A stretch of 60,929 nt of DNA, the filler included, from Gonapodya sp. JEL0774 (taxonomy: Eukaryota): assembly GCA_027604505.1 (NCBI GenBank). It is 6 parts of 6 records of this genome, joined end to end, with 100 filler letters (N's around TTAATTAATTAA, not from the genome) between each part and the next. Parts side by side here need not be neighbours in the genome. Positions count along the whole stretch, not along the records: positions 50,920 to 60,929 come from JADIIX010000397.1; 5 more parts are not named here. One strand, 5' to 3'. The notes under the pieces were generated by a model. The model made no database searches, had not been told where the DNA came from, and saw nothing but the letters and a program-made list of their open reading frames with translations. Shown here piece after piece: positions 10,119 through 60,929 of this stretch. The position numbers and the translations under genes are program-made. Each line of letters begins with the position of its first letter. Positions within the stretch are counted from its first letter, which is position 1.

Positions 10119-10218
10119 NNNNNNNNNNNNNNNNNNNNNNNNNNNNNNNNNNNNNNNNNNNNTTAATTAATTAANNNNNNNNNNNNNNNNNNNNNNNNNN
10201 NNNNNNNNNNNNNNNNNN
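10119..10218. other. Artificial contig linker (N44-TTAATTAATTAA-N44)
   Basis: The identical 100-nt spacer, with stops in all frames, occurs five times in the window. Confidence 0.99.
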
Positions 10219-45880: not shown

Positions 45881-47300
45881 TCATCCAACACGCTGCAGTG
45901 TGTATCTTCGCACAATTTGGCGAACCTGCCGGTACGCCACCATCCCAAACTCTTCGTCAAGCTCAATACCGTTCCCAAAAAGGCCGATGACAACAGCTTC
46001 CTCTTCGTCTGTGAGTAGCTTGTTTGGAGGCTCGATTTGGCGATGGGGTTGGTTGAAAACTGGAAGGTCATCAGAGTCAATGCCGAAGTACGCCGGTGCC
46101 CGCTGGTAAAGGTCATCATCAGCGTGTACGTTGACCTACGAGTACCAAAATTGATTTATTTGGGTCCCTGTAAATGGTGTGTGCAAGGGGAAAGACAGAA
46201 AACACCATGGTCAAGCACTTACTTCGCTTCCAAGCCAGCGAAACTCAGCCATCAACTCCCTTGGGGTCCGGTGGTTTGTGGTACGCATACTGTGGTTGTT
46301 CCACGCAGTCACAAACTCTGCCAGCGCCCTGTTTATTACAGGTAAGTACACCAGATGCAACGCGCACACATCAACTTCGTTGTACGGGTCCAACTCGCCC
46401 AGTGACTCCAGCCACTGAAACACGGAGATAAAAAGCGCAACCACCAAACGGTTACTATCTCTCCATAGCCTCTCAATGCGTTGGTTGTGTGTGGAAGTGC
46501 CACGAATGAAGCTCCCACGGTCAGGTCCACGCAGTTCCGTCATGAGCCTGGCAACATCATTGTTCTCACCACCATAGTCACCACGGACACGACTTGGAAC
46601 GCCACATTCACGCAGTCCCTGAGATAACGAAATCGTCCACTGTTTGGTGATTTTTTTTTGGGGGGGGGGGGGTACAGTCAATACATTGTAACACTTTGGA
46701 ACTCACCTGTCGAAAAATACAAAGCACTGTGGACGCTCGGTTATTAGTGGCCGCCTCAAGGTAAACAATGTACCGAGAATAACCATCAATGCAGCCGTGA
46801 ATGACAAATCCATAGGCGTTCAACTGCAGAAGAGTTGAGAAACACCAGTGCGTATTAATTTGTTAGTGCACACTGCTGTGGCCGACATGAGCAGCATTGA
46901 CTCACTTTATGGTTTCCATCCGTATGCCAAAGTGCATTTGGGCCTGACACGTGATAGCGACGACGTGCTATGGTGTAGTGGCTTCGACCTTCGACACCTT
47001 CAGAATCCACTCGACGCAGCGAGCGCCTAATTCTGTGGATAGAGACTTTCAACCGAAAACGGCCGTAGAGGAGACCTATTTGGAGAAGAAAAACGTTCCG
47101 AAGTTTGGTCCGGAGCGGTGGAGTCGGGGCCGAGGTGTAGGCGGAGGCAGGAGTAGGTGGCACAGGTGTTGTTGATCTGTCCTCCAGCTCCAGCTCCAGA
47201 CCCCCAGACCTTTCCAACCTGGTCCGTGCCATGTCTACCGCGGCATCGACCTCCACACTTCTCTCCCCATCACTCGGCCTCGAATTATGATGCATTTTCG
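45881..47300 (-). mobile_element. Eukaryotic IS3/IS481-related (IS3EU-like) DDE transposase with spliceosomal introns; 5' end uncertain
   Basis: RIRRSLRRVD...RRRYHVSGPNALWHTDGNHK|L...FVIHGCIDGYSR...NNRASTVL..F|..[14 protein letters not shown]...[15 protein letters not shown]...WNNH...|...FGIDSDD...GMVAY*. The D-D-E triad is intact. Confidence 0.88.
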
Positions 47301-48774
47301 CCCCAAACCCGATTGCCATGGCCACCGACATGCGGTTCAAAGGGGAAACACCCTTCCCACGGTCATGGTACTCGCTTGGACCATGCTGAGTCTCTTGATG
47401 TGGTTCTGCATGCAGGGACGCGGTCCGTCTCTGCACCGACTGCACCTGTTCGGGTCCCCGTCAAGGTTGCCCCGGAGTGGACGCCGCACCACATCTCGTA
47501 CAGTGACCGTCGTGGGTCGGAGTCTGCAAACGGGAGGGGGGGGGGGGGGGGGGCCCAACCCGAAACACAACTGTCCAACAAGGCACAAAAGGCCNNNNNN
47601 NNNNCTCGCGCCGGGGGGCGGGCGGCCGCGTGGGCGCCCCCCCCCCCCCCCCCCCCCCTCGCCGGCGGCGGGCCGCGCGCGGGCGGGCCCGGGCCCGGGG
47701 GGGGGGGCCCCCCCCCCCCCCCCCACCACAGCGATCCACAACTGTCCACCAAGGCACAAACTGCGACCGAACAGCCCTTTCAAACCGTCGTCAACCTCCT
47801 CCCCGTTATATCCGTACATGATCGCGAGCAGCTCTCTCACTTACCTCATGGTATTAATCGAACGCAACGATCGCCTCTGTTTGATTGCCATCCACCATCA
47901 CACTTTCCTTCCCGAACCACTCAGCGCCTTCCTGGTGCTTCCACGGGTTTGCTCGCCCCTACTTGCAGTTTCAGATGGAATAATCAACCACTGAAGCCGA
48001 GCGCGCATCAACGTGGGAACGGAGTGATTAGAATTCACGATCTGCAGGGGGGACCAGCCGGATCATCGGCCGATCTTCAATCCGAAACGTTTTGATTATG
48101 AAAACGATAAGTGCTTGTAAGAAAAACTCCTCCTTTCTCGATGTCATTTTGTGTCAAATGAAAAATGAAAATGATGATTGTGTTGTCTCTCTTGTGGTGG
48201 TGGTGTAGATGTTCCTTTGCTGTTGTGTTGCCTCTATTGTGTGGTTCCTGCACTCTTTATGGGGTTGACATTCAATATTCTTTACATGATACCTCTTTAA
48301 TGTGTATGTTTGCTTCTCTTGTGTGATGGTACAGGTGTTGTATAATTTTTGGGTCAAAATTTTCCCATACGCCAGCTGAATACACATATACATTGCTGTC
48401 CATCTGCTCAATCATGCCCCCGTTCAATCGTTGAACCTCACATGACAGAGCTCTCTTGCTACATTACACAATGCCTTTAATGATAGCACGGACTCACCCA
48501 TGAGCTGCGCCTCTGGGCCCAGTCGTGTCTCCCTGATCGACCAGCAATATGATTTTTTACTTTCCTTTGGATGATTCTCCGTTTGTTCCCGTCCTTTCTT
48601 TCCTCGTCGTGTTAGTTCTGTATACAAGAATGCCATGATCCCGCCTCTGTGACAAAATTACAAGATTGTGCACATTACATAGATGCCCACGCTTCCTCGA
48701 TCGGCGACACAATGCAACCATCGCCATCCCTAGTGTCACCAACAGAACATACCACCGCGATGCATCCGCCCTCT

Positions 48775-50919: not shown

Positions 50920-51297
50920 TGTTGTGGATTCGACGGCGACGACGTGCTCCAGCAGCGTGACGGCCTTGCCCACCTGCCCGTTGGCCTGGTACGCCCAAGC
51001 GAGTTCGTGCTGCGAGGCGAGGCGGGACGGGTGGTCCTCGGCCAATGTTGTGGATTGGACGGCGACGACGTGCTCCAGCAGCGTGACGGCCTTGCCCACC
51101 TGCCCGTTGGCCTGGTACGCCTGAGCGAGTGTGTGCTGCGAGACGAGGCAGTCCGGGTGGTCCTCGGCCAGAACCCGCTCACTGACGGCGACGACGTGCT
51201 CCAGCAGCGTGACGGCCTTGCCCACCTGCCCGTTGTCCTGGTACGCGGAAGCGAGTTCGTGCTGCGAGGCGAGGCGGGACGGGTGGTCCTCGGCCAG
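50920..51297 (-). repeat. Three near-identical 126-bp (42-aa) TPR-coding tandem repeats, cut by the contig end
   Basis: Units 51297-51172, 51171-51046 and 51045-50920: LAEDHPxxLxSQHxLAxAYQxNGQVGKAVTLLEHVVAVxxxx. Confidence 0.95.
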
Positions 51298-53637
51298 TTT
51301 CAGCGCATCCCGTCTTCCAATGTCGCATTTCTGGAGCCACATCACGGCTTCTGGCACTTTGCCATCCTTTTTCAAGCATCGTCCGATCCAGAAACAAAGG
51401 ACGTATCGTTCCGCCAATTCCTTGCCTTCGCTGCTTCCCAGCACTTTAACGGCGTGCGGGAGGTACGCCCTCCACACATCCCTGGCGTCCCAATCGTCTG
51501 TTTGAAAAACTGTCGCGATGTGCTGAATCGCTTCTCTCGTCTTTTGTGCAGTAAGGCCCTGTATGCGAAGCCAGTCTCCAGCCGCCAGATGCACTAACCG
51601 GTGGAGGTCATACAGGTCCTGGTCCTTCCGAGGCGACACGAAGGAATAACCAATAAGAGTACCGATAGCATCTTCCATTTTTAGTATTGACTGCGCTGCA
51701 GGCAAGATGGATCGAGGAATTGCCTTGGACTCGATGCACGACATGAAAGACAAGAGATCCGCGGCCAGGGGATCGTTTGTGCGGATCTGGTTGAAGGAGA
51801 CCAGCCACGTTGTGGCCACGGCATTGCTCGATCCTGAATAGCGTTGCTTGTTGACGAATTCCTTGCTCAGGAGGTCGGCCACCTCCGAGCTTCGTAAAAT
51901 GTCAAGATAGCCAGCAATGGACAGTTGTTTGTTTTTATTCAGATACGCTACCGCCTGAGAGAGTGCCAGTGGCAAACAGGTGAGCTCCTCCAGAAGGTTG
52001 TCCACGCTTGCGAAGTCGTACAGGAGCTCCTTGCGGATGAGGGACGTCTTAAGTAACTCCTTCGCCTCCTGCTCATCCATGGCGTCTACATCAATGACAT
52101 CGGCCACCGCCAGCGCAACTGCGACCTCTTGAATGCGGGTTGTGTACACGAAGAGCCCCTCCTCGCTCTGTGGAAGGTAGTCTGCGATACCGGGGGCTCC
52201 CCCGGACCCGTTTACAAGTCTCGCATCGTCGGCATTGTCGAGGACGATGAGCCAAACACCTGCCCTCTTCGTACTCAAATGCTGCTTCACAAGGTCCTTG
52301 ATGTCGTCGTCCTTGTCCGAACGTATCCCCAGTGTTTTTGCAATCTCCCGGCATGCCTGCTCGAAGCTCTCCATGCTGATAGCAGGTAACCAAAACACAG
52401 AGCGCCTTCTGTCCGCCTCCTTGACCTGGTAAGCAAACTCCAGCGCAACCTGCGTCTTTCCGACCCCGCCGAGGCCGACAAGAGCCATCTGCCGGCATTC
52501 CTTGTTGTTGCCTAAGAGTTTGTGCGCCAACTGTTGAAGTTGAGAGGTGCGGCCCACAAAACGAGGATTCCGCGGAAATGGAATGTACGCTGTAAATTTG
52601 CAGATTTGCGTCAGGTCAGCTCAGTTCCTGTAACACCCACCCGCACCGCGCGTGGCTTGACGGGTGAAAAAGAAAAAGTGACGAACCTCGTGTTCCCGGA
52701 TCGGTCCTGGGTATCACCAACAGGAGTTCCTTGGCGCATGCTGCAGCTGCGCCTGCTGCATAGCCCTGCCAGTTGGAGTTTTTGTGCGAGTCTGCATAGT
52801 CACAAATGCCTCGAATCACAAGACATGGGAAATGATTCATGAGCCCTGCCGCTTCCATCTCGAAGCACAGGACTCCTCCGAGATCGGTGCTGACTCTGTC
52901 CCGTTGCATCCCATCCCTCATGTCCTGATTCCCGGATGCAATCAAACCGTAGTGAACCATGGGCTCTTGAAGAGCTCGAGTGGGCCGAAGGAGTTGCCTT
53001 TCAGCGCTGCAGGACGTGCACGCGTGGCGGCCACGTTCGTGATTATAGCTCGGATGGAACAAGACGTCAGGTCCGGCAGCCTCCCGACGAAAGATCGGAA
53101 GGGGAAGAAGCTTCGTCAGGTGACCCGCAAGGCCATCTTTCTCGGTGACGAGGTTAGCTTGAAGTTGGCTGACAGCATTGAGAAGCAACGGCGGTGGACT
53201 GTTGAGGAATCCCTTTCGGCGGAACCCCTCGTGAGTTGTTTCCCCAAAGTCGTACTGCACCACGCCACCGTGAGTTTCCAAGGGCTGACTGACGACCACA
53301 TCGCCCAGTCGAATGTCTGCGTCCGGGCTGGGAACACCGCCTCCGACGCCTACCATGAGACGGAACTGCAGGGAATCGAAGGTCCGGCCGAGGTTGTTCG
53401 CAACCGCTGCGGCAGAGCTGGTCCCGCGATTTCCGGCCGGAAGACAAGCGACGACAACATTGTGTACCCCGATCCGTCCGAAAGAGTAGATGTTTGGGTC
53501 GCTCATATCCCGATCGAGTGGTTGATATTCCTCGTCAAACATTGCCCGGGCAGCCGCGAGCTCGGTCGGGAGAGCGCATATCCACCCAACAGTATACTCG
53601 TCGGAACGCAGGCGTCTTGCCTTGGAGCCATCTGGAG
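50920..53637 (-). CDS. Fungal NLR: PNP_UDP (nucleoside phosphorylase-like) + NB-ARC + TPR, 3' truncated
   Basis: EYTVGWICALPTE, LMVGVGGG, DIRLGDVVVS, CFEMEAAG, IRGICDYADSHKN. Intron 52590-52686 leads to YIPFPRNPRFVGR, P-loop GLGGVGKT, Walker B WLIVLDNADD, LPLALSQA, LHRLVH, then 42-aa TPRs. Confidence 0.95.
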
Positions 53638-54077
53638 CTGTACAGGGGGTGTGCATGGTAAGTTGACAAGTGTGATCCGGAGAAACACTGTGTTCAGGGA
53701 TCACCTCCTGCACGCCTGTCCGACATTCAATTCAGTTCTTTGAGGTAAGGAAAGAGATTTCTTTGGGGGTTTTGGTCGACAAAGCCCTCCAACAGTGCTG
53801 CTGGACAATCTTGTGGGTTGCAGGGCAAGGTCCGCCACCTCGCCCTGAGAGGGGCAACCCTGGCTGGGTCTTCCCCGATTGGGCAACATTCAATGTATCG
53901 CTACCGGTGAGCAAGGCACACTCAGTGTATTTGTATCACTTCTTTTTGTTAAACCCAGTGCTTTAACAACACAAATGAATTGCAAGGTAGTGCCACCACC
54001 CAAGTCAGTCAGTCAGCCAGCCAGCTAGCCATCCTCACATGAGAGATGCATGATTTTTGAGAGCAGGAAAGAGAGCT

Positions 54078-55000
54078 TCAACCACTCCGACGAGCTGATG
54101 GCTGTATCACAGATAACATCTCTTTGGCGCAAGCAGCTGCGGTTGCGGCAGCGTACCCCTGCCACTTTTGATTCTTGTGCGAGTCCGCGTAGTCGCAGAT
54201 ACCCCGAATCACGAGGCAGGGAAAGTTGGACATCAGCCCCGCCGCCTCCGTCTCGAAGCACAGAATGCCTCCAAGCTCCTTGCTCGTTGCATCTCGTTGG
54301 GCCGCGTCACCCATCACTCGGCTGCCCGAAGCGATGGTACCGTAGTGAACGACCGGCTCTTCGTCTTGTCGAGGTGATCGCAAAACCTGTTGGCATGGTC
54401 GCTGCGTAGGTCCAGGGGCGTGGTTGCATGTCGCATCAAATAGTATATCCTTCCCCGTCGCAGCGCGAGAGAACGCTCGGAGACGAGTCAGCTTGGCGAT
54501 ATGATCCGCAAGGCTGTTTTCTCCCACGAGTTGGCTGGCCCGAAGGTGGGTGACCGCATTGAGTAGCATCCGTGGCGGGCTGTCGAGGTGTCCAGTTCTA
54601 TGGAACCCACTCGAAGTCAACTGACCGCTGTCAAACTGAACCACACCGCCGTGCGTTCCAAAGGGCATACTAACGACGACATCTCCCAGTCGGATGTCTG
54701 CGTCCTCACTGGGGACCCCGCTTCCGATGCCCACCATGAGACCAAACTCCACCGACGTGAATGTCCGCATGAGCTGCGCCGCGACAGTCGCAGCGGAACT
54801 TCCTCCTGTCATGCCAGCTGGAAGACGCGCGAGGATGACATTGTGCACCCCGATTCGGCCGAACGAGTAAATATTGCCATCACCGGCAATCCGGTCAAGG
54901 GCAGGATGCTTTTCATCCAAGAGTGCAGTTGCGGCAGCCAACTCAATGGAAAGGGCACATATCCATCCGACAGTGTACTGGTCGGGCCGAAGTGGTTGAG
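54078..55000 (-). CDS. Second PNP_UDP domain exon
   Basis: QYTVGWICALSIE, LMVGIGSG, DIRLGDVVVS, CFETEAAG, IRGICDYADSHKNQKWQGYAA. No ATG of its own, and preceded by the acceptor ttggtag. Confidence 0.9.
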
Positions 55001-55056
55001 CTACCAACGAAAACGGATCTTTTTACCATCGTCGAACTCAAAACTTCAAAAAGAAT

Positions 55057-57065
55057 TTATGGTCTACCTCTGGCAGCAATATTTGGTGCCGTGCCCGGTG
55101 GTACTTCCGCCTCTGTATGAGCAGGCGCTACCATGTGCCGATGCGGACCGGGGTTCCATGTGTTGGCAGTTGCAACCCCTTGCTCGAAATGTCTTGCCGG
55201 TACCGGTGATGGTTGCTGCGAAGTGGTTGCAGAGGGAGCGAGAACAGAATCGACATGCGCTGGTGCTACCTGGAGCCTGGGAGGCGGTTCGGGATCGGTC
55301 AACTGGGGGAAATGGTTTTTGAGGTCTTTCACAATTTCCGCGAAAGTTGGACGCTGTTCAGGAAGTGGGTCCCAGCAGCGCTTGACAAGTTTCTTGACTG
55401 GTTCTGGCATTGGAACGGCAGCCATTCTCTGCGTCTCTGACAGGTTCTCCAGGTCCTCATATGTGTCAATGTCAGGCCGATCTCCGCTCAAAATGCAATG
55501 GACAATGGAACCTTCCATTGCAGTGAAGAAGGGAATCTGGAGCGTATACATCTCGTAGAGGGTCATCGCAAAAGCATGCACATCCACCTTTGCAGACAAC
55601 TTTGGTTTTCTGCCAAAGAGTTCGGGCGCCATCCAATTTGTCGTTCCGCGGCGTGCTTCTTTGCTGAGAGTCGAAACTTGGGATGCTATAACCGCGAAGC
55701 CAAAGTCTGCAACAAGAGCATGGCCCATATCATCCACTAGAACATTGAGCGCCTTGAGGTCGCAGTGAAGGACTCCTTTTGTGTGGAGGTGTTGCATGGC
55801 ATTCGCAATGTCGAAAATGAGATCGATGCGGTCTGCACGCGGATTCTTCGTCAAATACGTGAGGAGATCGCCGTTGCGCATATAAGGCGATACCATGAAT
55901 GGCGGTGTGGCCCGGAGATTTGCTCCGAAGAGTTGTATGATGTTGGGGTGGCGAAGACGGTACCAGCGTTCCACCTCGTTATGAACAAGCTGATAGTGAG
56001 TAGAACAAGGTGAGATGTTGGTACAATGACGGGCCGAAAAGGACAATTGCCCCACTCACCGCTTTTAAGTTTTCGGGTGGATGTTCCACTAGCAAGTACT
56101 TTATGGCAACGCGACGAGTTCCTCCCCATGTCCCGAGATACACCTTACCGAATCCACCTGCTGCAAATGGAGTGCTGTTGCGTGCAACATCCTGTTCCGG
56201 GATATGCCATTCTTCATCGGCCAAGTATTGACCCGATATACGTGAAATAGAGGTCCGGGCCTTGCCGAGAAGATCACGTTCGTTCGGACTGGGCGAACCA
56301 ACATTGAGGGTTGCTTGTATTCCTCTCAAGATCTCCAAAACGTGCTGGCCCTGACTGTTTGTAACCTCCAGTGTTGCGAGGATGGTTGCGTCGTTCTTCA
56401 GCAACTGGTCCAGCGCATTCTGCGCGGTAACTTCCTCAGCTTGCCGGTCTGCCTTGTTCTCGGCGGCCCAGCTGTCGAGGTTCAGCGTAGCCGTAAGCTA
56501 TCAACAAAACATTCGTTAAGTTGGTCATGGAGCTTTTCGAAAAAAATTTGATGTTGTTCCACGAACCTGAAAGTCATTTACCATAGACTGAAGTCTATTG
56601 TCGTACTCTTCAAGTTCCTTTCGTGTAGCGCTGCTGTTGAGTACGCGGTACCACTTTGGCTTCCCTTTGACCGTCTCGAGGAACTTGGCAACCTCCATGA
56701 GAAACCTGGAGACGAGGAACAGATATTAGAAATCGTATTCGATTTTCTTCAGAACAAACTCACTCAGTGAACTTCTTGGCATGGGTTTGGAGAGGTTCTC
56801 GAATGTCCTTGTTTCCAGGGTCCATTCGGCTGGCGATGGCTTGGACGAGCAAGGCACAGCGGCTGGCAAGACGCACGACGAGCTCTTTGTTGTCCTTAAA
56901 GTCCTTTGACAGAGTGTAGACAGCGCGGAGAGCCTCAGCGCAGGTTCCAAACACCGGGATGTTAGTGAGGTTGGAGACGACATTCAGGACGGTAACGACG
57001 CCATCGAGCAGGTTATTGACAAACACGGGATCGACTGCATTCGAACCATCCACGCAGGCCTCCAT
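55057..57065 (-). CDS. MLKL-like N-terminal helical domain + TKL-type protein kinase
   Basis: Exons 57065-56764, 56705-56582, 56497-56060 and 55989-55068. N-terminal IPVFGTCAEALRAVY...KDNKELVVRLASRCALL is the MLKL_NTD pattern. Kinase motifs GGFGKVY, VAIK, HCDLKALN, DFG, WMAPE, CWDPLPEQRP. Confidence 0.88.
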
Positions 57066-57861
57066 CGTCCTACTTTTCGGGGAAACTCTAGGGTGGTGAA
57101 GGTGGTGGTTCAGCCAGCCACCAAAGCTTTGGTCACAGCCATTTGAAGGCCAAGGACCACGTACCAACCAAAACCGAGGCGGAGACGAGCTGCGCATACC
57201 CAGCCAGTCCAGACCGAGCCAGGAGTGACCAGGCACACTTGGAAAGGGGCTGTGCACACACGAAGGCGGCGCCGGGCTCACCTTCCATCTGCCAAGCACA
57301 CAGAGAGGGGGTGTGACGGTGGCCCTGGTTTGAGAATACAGTTGCTCCAGCTGCTCCTGGAATCAACTCATAGGGAAAGATCTAGACCTACCCGTCACGG
57401 AGTCACAAAAGGGTGCGTATTTTTCGGAATGCTATGGTTTTAACAGAAAAATGGGGCAGTAAGCGCACCACTCGAATGTCGTACATTACGCCGCATGCTG
57501 CCACAATTCTTTTTCTCTTTCGAGATGGAAGGCAGTGTCGAAAACAGACCGTACTTCAGGTGGCCCAGCTGTGGATCAGGCGAAAGCGAGTGTCAAGAGA
57601 CAAATTGTCCCCGCTATCAGCAATGGCTTTCCAAACACATTCAGTCTCGACCATCTGGGACAAAGTATTCTCCGAAACTTCCGCGTTCGGACGTTTGGTG
57701 AGCAGATTGGGCAGTCCTCACGTCACAACCAGCATCTCTTAAATCATTTCTGCCTCTCTGGACGACGAAACTGCTGATCAGTACATCATGTTACCGTTCG
57801 CGAAAATCAACCAAGGAAGAAAAAGCGCAGATCCCCCGGTATATTTTTCCGAGTTTATATA

Positions 57862-58470
57862 ATGATAATGGCAAAAATATTGAAAAGAGAACTACCTTGT
57901 GGTGTCTCGTTGGATCAAGGCATTTTGCCTATGGAACTTCACGCAAGCAAGGAGAAGTTTGAAATCTTATGGTCACTGAAACCACCAAAGTATGGCCACG
58001 TTGTTATTCAGGGACGTTCCATACCAACTCCAAGATATTTCCAAAATTACAACAAATCGTATTATTTCTCCGGATTGAGTCACAGTGCAATGCCAACTCC
58101 TGACACTCTGCAACCATACATCGATTGGGCGAACACACTACCTGAGTACAGACATTACGGAAAGTTTGATCAAATATTGGCAAACTGGTACATCAATGGA
58201 AGTCATTACATCGGACCACATTCCGATTCTACAATAAACGTAATACCAAGAAGTCCGATACTTTCCATCAGTCTGGGAGTGACAAGAATGTTTAGAATTC
58301 GAGATAAGAAGTCGAAAATGATTCTCAAAGACGTTGAAGTGAAAAACAATACCTATAGTGTCATGTGTGGCGATTTTCAGAACAAATGCACACATGAGAT
58401 CGTAAAGTCTAAGAGAGTAAATGGACCTCGAATGAGCATCACATTGCGGATGTCGCTCGACCAGTCCTGA
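57862..58470 (+). CDS. AlkB-family 2OG-Fe(II) dioxygenase (ALKBH2/3-like), intronless
   Basis: PTPRY, LANWY, YIGPHSD (HxD), ILSISLG..RMF, THEI (distal His), RMSITLR. Visibly more AT-rich than the neighbouring host genes. Confidence 0.93.
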   Translation: MIMAKILKRELPCGVSLDQGILPMELHASKEKFEILWSLKPPKYGHVVIQGRSIPTPRYFQNYNKSYYFSGLSHSAMPTPDTLQPYIDWANTLPEYRHYGKFDQILANWYINGSHYIGPHSDSTINVIPRSPILSISLGVTRMFRIRDKKSKMILKDVEVKNNTYSVMCGDFQNKCTHEIVKSKRVNGPRMSITLRMSLDQS

Positions 58471-58574: not shown

Positions 58575-58915
58575 ATGCGATTCCACATTCTGAAACTTTT
58601 CGAAATCTCATCCCGGATGGGGATGAGGATGGGGATCAGACTTTCTGAAAACTTTTCGAAATCTTCATCCGGGATGAGGATGGGATCAGACTTTCTCAAA
58701 CTTTTCGAAATCCTCATCCGGGATGAGGATGGGATCAGACTTTCTGAAAACTTTTCGAAATCTTCATCCGGGATGAGAATGGGATCGGACTTTCTCAAAC
58801 TGTTCGAGATCCTCATCCGGGATGAGGATGGGATCAGACTTTCTGAAACTTTTCGAAATCTTCATCCGGGATGGGGAGAAGATGGTTTTCGATCACATTC
58901 TGAAACTTTTCAGGA
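58575..58915 (+). repeat. Tandem array A: about 6 units of 49-50 bp, each with two palindromes
   Basis: Unit TTCT(G/C)AAA(A)CTTTTCGAAATC(T/C)TCATCCGGGATGAGGATGGGATCAGACT. Palindromes TTTCGAAA and ATCCTCATCC-G-GGATGAGGAT. Alternating 50/49-bp units give a 99-bp higher-order repeat. Confidence 0.95.
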
Positions 58916-58980: not shown

Positions 58981-59715
58981 TTATTTCTTGTACAGTGGAA
59001 GGTTGTCCTTTACTACTATTGGCTTAGTTGTCGTCAGCCCAACTTCGACGTCCGATCCACCATGTCGACAGCAACATCCTCTGTAGTACACATCCTTCAA
59101 ACACGCGAGCACAAAACAACAGAGAACAACGCCGACAATCATCGCCAACACTGCAACTGTCCACGTCATTCCAGTCACCACCGCCATCCATCGCGGCGAC
59201 GCTGACGTTCCGTGAACCCACCCAATGTTCGTGCTGTTCAACGCCCTTTCAATCGCTTCCTTCTCTGCTTCACTCGCTTCCCAGTTGGTGCTGACATACA
59301 CCGGACCAGCCTTCCCAAACGTCGCCAAAAGTCCGTTTCCTGAAACATGCCCTCCAACCATCCATTCACCAGGTAGGGTCCAGTCGAGGTCTCCTCCGCC
59401 AACGCTGCCATTCAATTGCTTTGACAATTCAAATGTCACCGCAAGCGCGTTCCCAACGATCTCGTTCGCCTGCCACCACGTGAACCCATACCCAATCGCC
59501 CTGATTCGCCGCCCTCCCGTTTCAAGATACACCGTCGCTCCATACATCCCACACGTGGCTCTTGCTGTCAGCGGGCACGTCACACACTGGTTAGCATACC
59601 CTCGTCGAACCAAGACAGTCCTGTCTTCCCCCGTCCCATCAACCCCGCTCGTACTCGTCGCAGTGAATACCGCAATGCTCAGTGTAATCAGAACAGTCAA
59701 AAGCGTTTTCAGCAT
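58981..59715 (-). CDS. Intronless type I membrane (glyco)protein of unknown family
   Basis: Signal peptide, VLVRR|G dibasic site, NGS and NST sequons, C-terminal TM helix and a Cys-rich tail (LCCFVLAC...GCCCR). Confidence 0.75.
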   Translation of the reverse strand: MLKTLLTVLITLSIAVFTATSTSGVDGTGEDRTVLVRRGYANQCVTCPLTARATCGMYGATVYLETGGRRIRAIGYGFTWWQANEIVGNALAVTFELSKQLNGSVGGGDLDWTLPGEWMVGGHVSGNGLLATFGKAGPVYVSTNWEASEAEKEAIERALNSTNIGWVHGTSASPRWMAVVTGMTWTVAVLAMIVGVVLCCFVLACLKDVYYRGCCCRHGGSDVEVGLTTTKPIVVKDNLPLYKK

Positions 59716-59736
59716 GTTGTTTGATGGATTGCTTAG

Positions 59737-59810
59737 ATGATTCGATGCTATGCTTCGATGCTTCGATGGGATGCTTCGAATGTTCGATGGAATGCTTCGA
59801 TGCTTCCATC
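59737..59810. repeat. Short degenerate (A)TGCTTCGA repeats upstream of the glycoprotein gene
   Basis: gattcgatgctatgcttcgatgcttcgatgggatgcttcgaatgttcgatggaatgcttcgatgcttcc. Confidence 0.8.
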
Positions 59811-60217
59811 GGTGCCATCAGTGCTTATATCCCGTTCTCCTCTGTGGCTCAGCTGGTGCTCATCCTCGAATTTTTTTTTCTTCCTTTTCTTTTCGGGATG
59901 GGGATGGGATGGATTGGTTGCAGGTCAGATGGGATCTATGCAGAAGTGGGATGTGATTATGTTTTCTACAATTTTTGTATCTGTGACTCTCTATAAGCTG
60001 TCACGAACTCTGCCCTTTGCGTTATTGTCTAACTTCGAACAACAGCGTTCTCAGCTTCACACGCTTTACTCCTTCACCTCATACTTATCGCATCAATGAC
60101 TTGAACAACCTATACGATCGTTTTTCTACTATCCCAGATGGCAGGTATTTTTGTCAGAACCTTATAAGTGTGATATATAAGTGCTACACAAACTGGTTGG
60201 AAACAGAACCGCCTTGA

Positions 60218-60523
60218 TCAGGACGCCATGATGGCGAGCGCCCCTATCATGTACACCATTGTAATAAACTTGAGAGTTCCATTCACCGGTGTGAAGTCCC
60301 CATATCCGGTTGTCGTCCCCGTGGTCACAAGGAAGTACACTACGTCATATATAGACATCTTCTTCTCTTTGAATGAAGATGGCACACCCCAGTGTTCCAC
60401 ATCTTGGAACATCGCCCATACTCCAATCGTCACAGCCGCAGTCCACGCTGCCAGTACACCAACCCGCATCAGAACCTTTCCAACGTCGATCGACTTGAGC
60501 TCCTTTGCGAATACTGAGGTCAT
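60218..60523 (-). CDS. Miniature 2TM-1P potassium channel, viral Kcv-like, 101 aa, intronless
   Basis: MTSVFAKE...TM1 (VGVLAAWTAAVTIGVWAMF), pore helix IYDVVYFLVTT, filter TTTGYGDFTP, TM2 (KFITMVYMIGALAIM), then an immediate stop. ATG in AAAAATG context. Confidence 0.93.
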   Translation of the reverse strand: MTSVFAKELKSIDVGKVLMRVGVLAAWTAAVTIGVWAMFQDVEHWGVPSSFKEKKMSIYDVVYFLVTTGTTTGYGDFTPVNGTLKFITMVYMIGALAIMAS

Positions 60524-60624
60524 TTTTGGCTCCACCCTACCACATAGTAAAAGTTTTATTTTGCCCTGGCAACGACACACTCACGCTGCCTTCTGTCGGC
60601 TCTTCACACTGTGATAGAGGTCGC

Positions 60625-60929
60625 ATCTCGAATGAGTTTCGAAAAGTTTTCAGAATATCTGACTCCCATCCTCATCCCAATCCCGGATGAGATTTCGAAA
60701 AGTTTTTCAGAATCTCTGACTCCCATTCTCATCCCAATCCCGGATGAGATTTCGAAAGGGTTTGTCGGAATATCTGACTCCCATCCTCATCCCAATCCTG
60801 CATGAGATTTCGAAATTTTTTTTCAGAATCTCTGACTCCCATCCTCATCCCAATCCCGGATGAGATTTCGAAAAGTTTCAGAATCTTCATCCCATCTTCA
60901 TCCCCATCCCCATCCTCTTCCCAATCCCG
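60625..60929 (-). repeat. Tandem array B: about 5 units of about 57 bp, same family as array A in inverted orientation; runs to the contig end
   Basis: The reverse complement of the unit, CGGGATTGGGATGAGGATGGGAGTCAGAGATTCTGAAAAACTTTTCGAAATCTCATC, aligns to the array A unit. Confidence 0.95.

Follow-up and report, generated by a model that had tools for sequence, protein, structure and literature searches.

A probable tandem pair of immune genes sharing a PNP module in the fungus Gonapodya sp. JEL0774

The number of genes at the locus

Do the four coding blocks at one end of a 60,929-nucleotide stretch of DNA from Gonapodya sp. JEL0774 (Monoblepharomycota) encode a single giant NOD-like receptor (NLR), as an initial annotation had proposed, or do they belong to separate genes? 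The whole stretch, hereafter the window, consists of six contigs of roughly 10 kb joined by N spacers (at 10119, 20319, 30511, 40671 and 50820, each N44 + 12 bases + N44), so that genes across a spacer are unlinked; the immune genes lie on the minus strand of its last part, a 10,010-bp contig (50920-60929), and the feature stops at 50920 because this contig breaks inside TPR repeats. All four open reading frame (ORF) blocks were recovered on the minus strand, where a kinase, two PNP_UDP_1 domains (PNP1 and PNP2), NB-ARC and TPR_12/TPR_10 exceeded their Pfam cut-offs; the remaining claimed domain, an MLKL-like bundle, fell just short of its own. The three proposed GT-AG pairs (junctions 1 to 3: 55067-55001, 54082-53638 and 52686-52590) are present in the sequence, each in phase 1, and with the three further introns of Table 1 they join the blocks into 1,780 stop-free codons; the first PNP block indeed has no ATG ahead of its domain. 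Nevertheless, the sequence indicates that the locus probably holds two tandem genes, A (MLKL-like bundle-kinase-PNP) and B (PNP-NB-ARC-TPR), an arrangement that the annotation had kept as its fallback and that a start exon for gene B and a paralog for each gene now favour; the two-gene reading becomes highly probable when minor read-through isoforms are counted within it. Even as two genes, the locus would encode an MLKL-kinase-PNP protein, with an immune PNP shuffled onto two kinases in an early-diverging fungus.

The decisive connection is junction 2, which would join PNP1 to PNP2 and is unlikely to be used. Donor strength was expressed as a simple count of matches to U1 (maximum 9), with the 313 GTs on the same strand between 51000 and 57000 serving as background; the 54082 donor (gttgaa) scored 3.5, a value that 45% of these GTs equalled or fell below, whereas the six other donors of the locus scored 5.5-7. 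A phase-1 GT is on offer in 17 of the 307 codons of the PNP1 exon, and at 445 nt the resulting intron would exceed all six other introns (58-97 nt). The acceptor at 53638 is accounted for by the first intron of gene B, which ends there after a short predicted start exon preceded directly by an in-frame TGA. The first seven residues are MSDGRAG in the stand-alone NLR paralog P0067 and MSDGHAG in P0087, and the start exon of gene B (MSDRRAG) matches a paralog start at six of seven residues and is followed by a phase-1 GT. When 20,000 sequences were simulated with the composition of the gap, none attained 6/7 together with an in-phase GT and one attained 5/7; the simulation was post hoc, the match having been seen before the test was built.

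Junction 1, by comparison, is likely to be used. The donors of junctions 1 and 2 had both been flagged as weak in the initial annotation; that of junction 2 proved to be at chance level, and that of junction 1 (gtagac) is weak, yet the junction itself is supported by paralog models. The public model P0001 uses it. In P0187, a second predicted protein from this organism (691 aa), the kinase is a different one (35% identical), and the PNP cassette behind it is that of gene A (87% identical), terminating at the same position as PNP1. Upstream of the junction 1 donor the linkers of P0187 and gene A are 42% identical over 43 aa (E 4.5e-7), corresponding to the last ~40 aa of the 80-aa gene A linker. 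Kinase-PNP fusions numbered two in the best 120 matches to the PNP1 cassette, both from Gonapodya sp. JEL0774. Junction 3, between PNP2 and NB-ARC, is likewise supported, the spliced sequence matching P0067 residue by residue.

The junction 1 intron and intron 1 of gene B, both 67 nt, show no similarity (1,970 of 2,000 shuffles reached at least the same score); NB-ARC remnants in the DNA after PNP1 were not supported in any of three frames (200-433 of 500 shuffles as high); nor was the proposal that this DNA is a relic of a PNP-NB-ARC intron (840 of 2,000 shuffles as high).

Several points weigh against the two-gene reading. All gene structures, ours and the public ones, are predictions, and no public protein corresponding to gene B turned up, exact look-ups of two unspliced forms of the gene being negative as well. 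The junction 1 donor has no +5G, and no branch motif occurs in the last 45 nt of the intron. The stop shared with P0187 is less telling because the last residues, G in PNP1 and S in P0187, may both be encoded by xGT codons; the final serine could be AGT, so that a conserved GT donor is possible. No locus tag adjoining that of P0187 occurs among the three named NLR paralogs. Tandem PNPs do exist in single models, with 30 PNP-PNP proteins and one PNP-PNP-NB-ARC protein (P0192, Elsinoe) among 438 fetched proteins (433 with a domain call; the set is biased by queries and search length limits), and kinase-plus-effector N-termini are described for 29 fungal NLRs (PMC9815663, S1 text).

The reading in which the main product is a single receptor of >1,780 aa, running from MLKL-like bundle and kinase through both PNPs to NB-ARC and TPR, is the one we rank as least probable of those weighed. 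The uninterrupted join speaks for it, as do the phase 1-1 flanks of both PNP exons, the G/GTT that closes PNP1 and PNP2 alike at almost the same point, the existence of P0192 and the known multi-domain N-termini of NLRs (PMC9815663); it would, however, depend on a donor at the 45th percentile of random GTs and on an unusually long intron that swallows the conserved ATG exon serving the same acceptor, P0187 ends where PNP1 ends, and no protein joining a kinase to NB-ARC was present among the 438 fetched. There is a slim chance that two genes also give rise to minor read-through fusions, for example from the 55067 donor to 53638 or 52590, yielding MLKL-kinase-(PNP2)-NB-ARC-TPR. With every junction in phase 1, the reading frame survives whichever donor is spliced to whichever acceptor, and the genes are 351 nt apart; such introns would nevertheless measure 1.4-2.5 kb against 58-97 nt locally, and no fusion of this kind was seen among the fetched proteins.

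A slimmer chance still attaches to three units, in which the TAA at 55057-55059 terminates the MLKL-kinase, leaving PNP1 either as a gene in its own right or as what survives of an older, decaying PNP-NLR copy. The weakness of the junction 1 donor and its missing branch motif fit this reading, as do two features of PNP1, its ETE (the less common variant of the EME motif) and its loss of one CxxC cysteine. On the other hand, the linker upstream of the donor is common to P0187 although the kinases differ, PNP1 lacks an ATG of its own and departs from just 4 of 76 conserved columns, its frame is open and its sequence close to the P0187 PNP, and all six kinase paralogs carry C-terminal extensions. 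Two tandem genes remain the reading adopted below, and their features are collected in Table 1.

Table 1. Predicted features of genes A and B in window coordinates.
Feature	Position	Strand	Description
Gene A exon 1	56764..57065	-	ATG 57065; first part of MLKL-like four-helix bundle
Gene A intron	56763-56706	-	58 nt, between exons 1 and 2
Gene A exon 2	56567..56705	-	Remainder of bundle
Gene A intron	56566-56498	-	69 nt, between exons 2 and 3
Gene A exon 3	56060..56497	-	Brace-like helices and start of kinase N-lobe (glycine loop, VAIK lysine 280)
Gene A intron	56059-55990	-	70 nt, after exon 3
Gene A exon 4	55068..55989	-	Kinase body: HCD 368-370, DFG 388, APE 414; non-RD; 80-aa linker
Intron J1	55001..55067	-	67 nt, phase 1; takes out TAA 55057-55059; weak donor
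Gene A exon 5	54078..55000	-	PNP1 (PNP_UDP_1); terminates at TGA 54080-54078
Intergenic gap	53727..54077	.	351 nt; in-frame TGA directly before gene B ATG
Gene B exon 1	53705..53726	-	22 nt, ATG 53726, MSDRRAG; matches paralog starts
Gene B intron 1	53638..53704	-	67 nt, phase 1
Gene B exon 2	52687..53637	-	PNP2 (PNP_UDP_1), conserved acidic residues
Intron J3	52590..52686	-	97 nt, phase 1; donor GTTCGT, branch CTGAC
Gene B exon 3	50920..52589	-	NB-ARC and TPRs; open at contig end
TPR repeats	50920..51297	-	Three 126-nt (42-aa) units, 88% matches; assembly breaks there

Predicted products of genes A and B

The predicted product of gene A comprises 907 aa and equals P0001 (hypothetical protein HDU93_006596, Gonapodya sp. 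JEL0774), which is 100% identical to the kinase in the window and stops at the same TGA. Its N-terminal bundle may be of the MLKL type: in fold comparisons it matched the MLKL N-terminal domain (6ux8; Z 10.8, root-mean-square deviation 2.7, 117 residues aligned), whole MLKL (4btf; Z 10.4) and AtMLKL3 (6ka4; Z 9.4), with further helices at residues 154-235 in the position of the brace region. Its closest neighbours in the Atlas, scoring 0.87-0.88, are clusters of MLKL-kinases from fungi and animals, and in two of the top three clusters MLKL_N occurs in 30-36% of members. The assignment is tempered by the MLKL_N score of the spliced 907-aa model, 26.9 bits (E 3.9e-6) against a cut-off of 27, by a tie between the 6ux8 match and unrelated bundles, Z values below 13 not being decisive for helical bundles, and by the low confidence of the structure model, whose predicted local distance difference test score (pLDDT) averages 41.9 and is poor outside the bundle; across residues 21-150 it is mostly 56-85. 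The kinase paralog P0003 scores 27.8 bits, above the MLKL_N cut-off.

The kinase domain (PK_Tyr_Ser-Thr, E 4.6e-46 in the spliced model and 1e-40 in the scan of the window blocks) is intact in sequence and looks active, retaining VAIK, HxD (as HCD), DFG and APE; MLKL proper, a dead pseudokinase, was accordingly rejected as an identification. It is of the non-RD type, as are six of the eight Gonapodya kinases checked, and non-RD kinases have been linked to immunity. Six paralogs in the same organism (P0002-P0007) lie on other contigs with kinase domains 44-67% identical to that of gene A; P0004 carries leucine-rich repeats (LRR) after the kinase, P0006 Sel1 and P0007 a PARP-like domain, and P0002, P0003 and P0005 have extensions in which no Pfam domain was detected. 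On balance we slightly favour the view that gene A belongs to a Gonapodya family of MLKL-kinases with swappable C-terminal modules (LRR, Sel1, PARP-like, PNP), acting as an executor: clustering would trigger autophosphorylation of the kinase, and the bundle would then be released and permeabilise the membrane.

Gene B encodes 881 aa up to the contig end and is 77% identical to the stand-alone receptor P0067 from residue 1. Its PNP_UDP_1 domain scored 35.6 bits (cut-off 25.1), its NB-ARC domain 37.8 bits (cut-off 23.5) and TPR_12 E 1e-22; P-loop, Walker B, sensor 1, GLPL-like and MHD-like motifs were all located. Models from Cenococcum are 55-57% identical over the whole length. A metagenome scan with PNP2 returned six loci at 52-56% identity, two near-identical ones of which are plain PNP-NB-ARC-TPR, and a kinase or MLKL match was found at none of the six. 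Elsewhere in the same organism, P0196 is a partial PNP-NB-ARC-TPR protein that ends in residues looking, by eye, like the beginning of the P0004 LRR, and it may combine TPR and LRR in one NLR.

We consider it quite likely, by analogy, that gene B works through sensing by its TPRs, oligomerisation by NB-ARC and cleavage of ATP by PNP2: the TPRs would bind a non-self ligand, NB-ARC would then oligomerise, and the clustered PNP2 domains would act as ATP nucleosidases, draining ATP and killing the cell. The PNP domain of a fungal NLR has been reported to cleave ATP and to be toxic (Rousset et al., bioRxiv 10.1101/2023.01.24.525353).

Origin and possible coupling of the two PNP domains

PNP1 and PNP2 are 62% identical, and the candidate catalytic acids, whose roles we take from those in methylthioadenosine/S-adenosylhomocysteine (MTA/SAH) nucleosidase (MTAN), are invariant in the 28-row alignments that hold both domains. 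The best PDB matches of PNP2 are MTA/SAH nucleosidases, though weak (E 1.5e-4). With an MTAN-type fold and these acids, PNP1 and PNP2 are candidate Cap17-like ATP nucleosidases. PNP2 departs from as many of the 76 conserved columns as PNP1 does, and the idea that PNP1 is a dead pseudo-enzyme was therefore not supported. The EME motif is present in 252 of 302 PNP domains; the ETE form was found in six domains by pattern and in P0187 by eye, PNP1 being among its carriers.

A quick tree was built from 50 PNP domains (those of 40 proteins chosen from the matches plus the two of the window). PNP1 paired with P0187 and PNP2 with P0067, each with a support of 100 in the Shimodaira-Hasegawa-like approximate likelihood ratio test (SH-aLRT), pairings that rule out PNP1 as a recent tandem copy of PNP2. 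The six Gonapodya PNPs formed one group among ascomycete PNPs (SH-aLRT 87). When the NB-ARC domain was searched, all 52 named non-Gonapodya relatives among the 120 matches listed were filamentous ascomycetes, at 50-64% identity; 66 of the 120 are unnamed. That the nearest named relatives of gene B are all of this kind suggests horizontal gain, which we regard as likely on sequence grounds; it is reasonably likely, more specifically, that one PNP-NLR came from a filamentous ascomycete and expanded, and that domain shuffling placed one of the PNP copies on native kinases. Simple contamination is unlikely, since PNP1 shares its contig with a kinase that has its close relatives in Gonapodya alone, and copies of the module lie on several contigs. 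The single origin is weakened by a smaller, more careful tree, in which monophyly of the Gonapodya PNPs was recovered in just 52% of bootstraps, and by the rooting of the trees at the midpoint, without outgroup or clade test.

Tandem PNP-PNP proteins (P0188, P0190, P0193, P0335-P0343 and others; 30 of the 438 fetched) are about 610-690 aa long, and in some of them one copy lacks conserved acids, which suggests covalent pseudo-heterodimers.

What PNP1 does in gene A is a matter of ranked possibilities. Our preferred reading, held tentatively, is that NLRs bearing a PNP, B among them, are docked or sensed through it; a role as a second ATP nucleosidase is ranked below this, as a doubtful alternative, and so is the alternative in which PNP1 has no link to B at all. 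A PNP module at the C-terminus of A and the N-terminus of B reproduces the layout of amyloid-coupled pairs. In complex prediction PNP1:PNP2 scored 0.35 against 0.00 for the best control, with contacts at least 96% agreed between runs and partner pLDDT of at least 87, which points weakly to docking between the modelled domains. In calibration, 51 of 78 solved pairs and 2 of 108 mismatched ones attained the mark used; at 0.60 or below, however, it was attained by only 5 of the 78 solved pairs and by all four passing mismatches, and the score may mirror likeness to homodimeric nucleosidases, close cousins passing as well. The adjacency of the genes would need no functional link if, after a tandem duplication long ago, the neighbouring kinase had captured the upstream PNP.

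If docking does occur, the horizontally gained receptor B might recruit the native, MLKL-like active kinase through PNP2-PNP1 contact, an enzyme domain taking the role of an amyloid motif or death domain. A single stimulus would then cause both ATP loss and membrane opening, in a NOD-RIPK2-MLKL-like circuit arisen afresh in a zoosporic fungus; we judge this full scheme unlikely. It would amount to a new way of coupling a fungal NLR to an executor, in a small system testable in yeast. If PNP1 does not dock, the locus would be a modest addition to fungal NLR diversity together with a probable fungus-to-fungus gene transfer.

Neighbouring features and comparison with known systems

Upstream of gene A, the same contig carries ORFs of other kinds. 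An intronless AlkB-like 2-oxoglutarate-Fe(II) oxygenase ORF (57778-58470, plus strand; E 1.1e-14) lies just upstream of gene A with a GC content of 0.40, against 0.51-0.58 in the immune genes; no relative was found in viral contigs. A 101-aa intronless potassium-channel-like ORF (60218-60523, minus strand) has a TTTGYGD filter and an Ion_trans_2 match (E 1.6e-10). Viral Kcv channels are similarly small; the ORF had one distant viral-contig match (L007; 38% over 35 aa), and no phage match was found. Arrays of 49-bp and 58-bp repeats (58587-58885 and 60624-60910), arranged as facing inverted repeats up to 91% complementary, flank ~1.75 kb that holds this channel and a 278-aa ORF without Pfam match (58981-59817, minus strand); the arrays may mark the two ends of an insertion of mobile or viral origin. 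On another contig, two ORFs (46211-47460, minus strand) resemble, by eye, an integrase-core transposon protein.

Neither an MLKL-kinase-PNP protein nor a Gonapodya PNP-NLR was found in the literature searched; a bioRxiv table of eukaryotic PNP architectures, which lay outside that search, may list kinase-PNP. In the part of the fungal NLR table of PMC9815663 that was covered, with 30 of its 138 kinase rows, there is no kinase-PUP or PUP-PUP string (PUP being PNP_UDP), and one row is a G. prolifera NB-ARC-TPR protein. NLRs are described as scarce in the early-diverging group to which Gonapodya belongs (PMC12258605).

Fungal PUP-NB-ARC-TPR receptors such as NLRN of Hyaloscypha variabilis (bioRxiv 10.1101/2023.01.24.525353) have the same architecture as gene B, in which the NB-ARC motifs are intact and the PNP acids kept. 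Where PUP NLRs are listed for ascomycetes (PMC9815663, Table A), gene B differs in belonging to Monoblepharomycota and in adjoining an MLKL-kinase that bears a PNP of its own. Fusions of PNP to gasdermin or Death domains likewise pair PNP with a cell-death domain, as a possible double effector, and the account of these fusions (bioRxiv 10.1101/2023.01.24.525353) names no kinase or MLKL-like partner, unlike gene A.

Animal MLKL, plant MLKLs and fungal HeLo-like/MLKL-kinases also place an N-terminal bundle before a tyrosine-kinase-like domain; in fungi, genes for NLRs and for HeLo/MLKL-like effectors frequently lie in clusters, and HeLo-like domains are in some cases attached to kinases (PMC12881547). 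Gene A differs from the pseudokinase of animal MLKL in keeping the lysine, HxD and DFG, and in its extra C-terminal PNP. The pairs nwd2/het-S and PNT1/HELLP similarly set an NLR beside an MLKL/HeLo-like killer, with a related module at the N-terminus of the NLR and the C-terminus of the effector (PMC12881547). The module here, by contrast, is a 300-aa enzyme fold shared by both genes and not a short amyloid motif, the effector has a kinase, and the coupling is putative; with ~14 residues before PNP2 and fewer than 10 after PNP1, there is little room for an amyloid motif. In the NOD1/2-RIPK2 system an NLR with an N-terminal module is combined with a kinase that carries a module of this kind C-terminally. 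That module is a CARD, and in genes A and B it would be a PNP; the likeness is thus one of analogy, the linking domain not being homologous.

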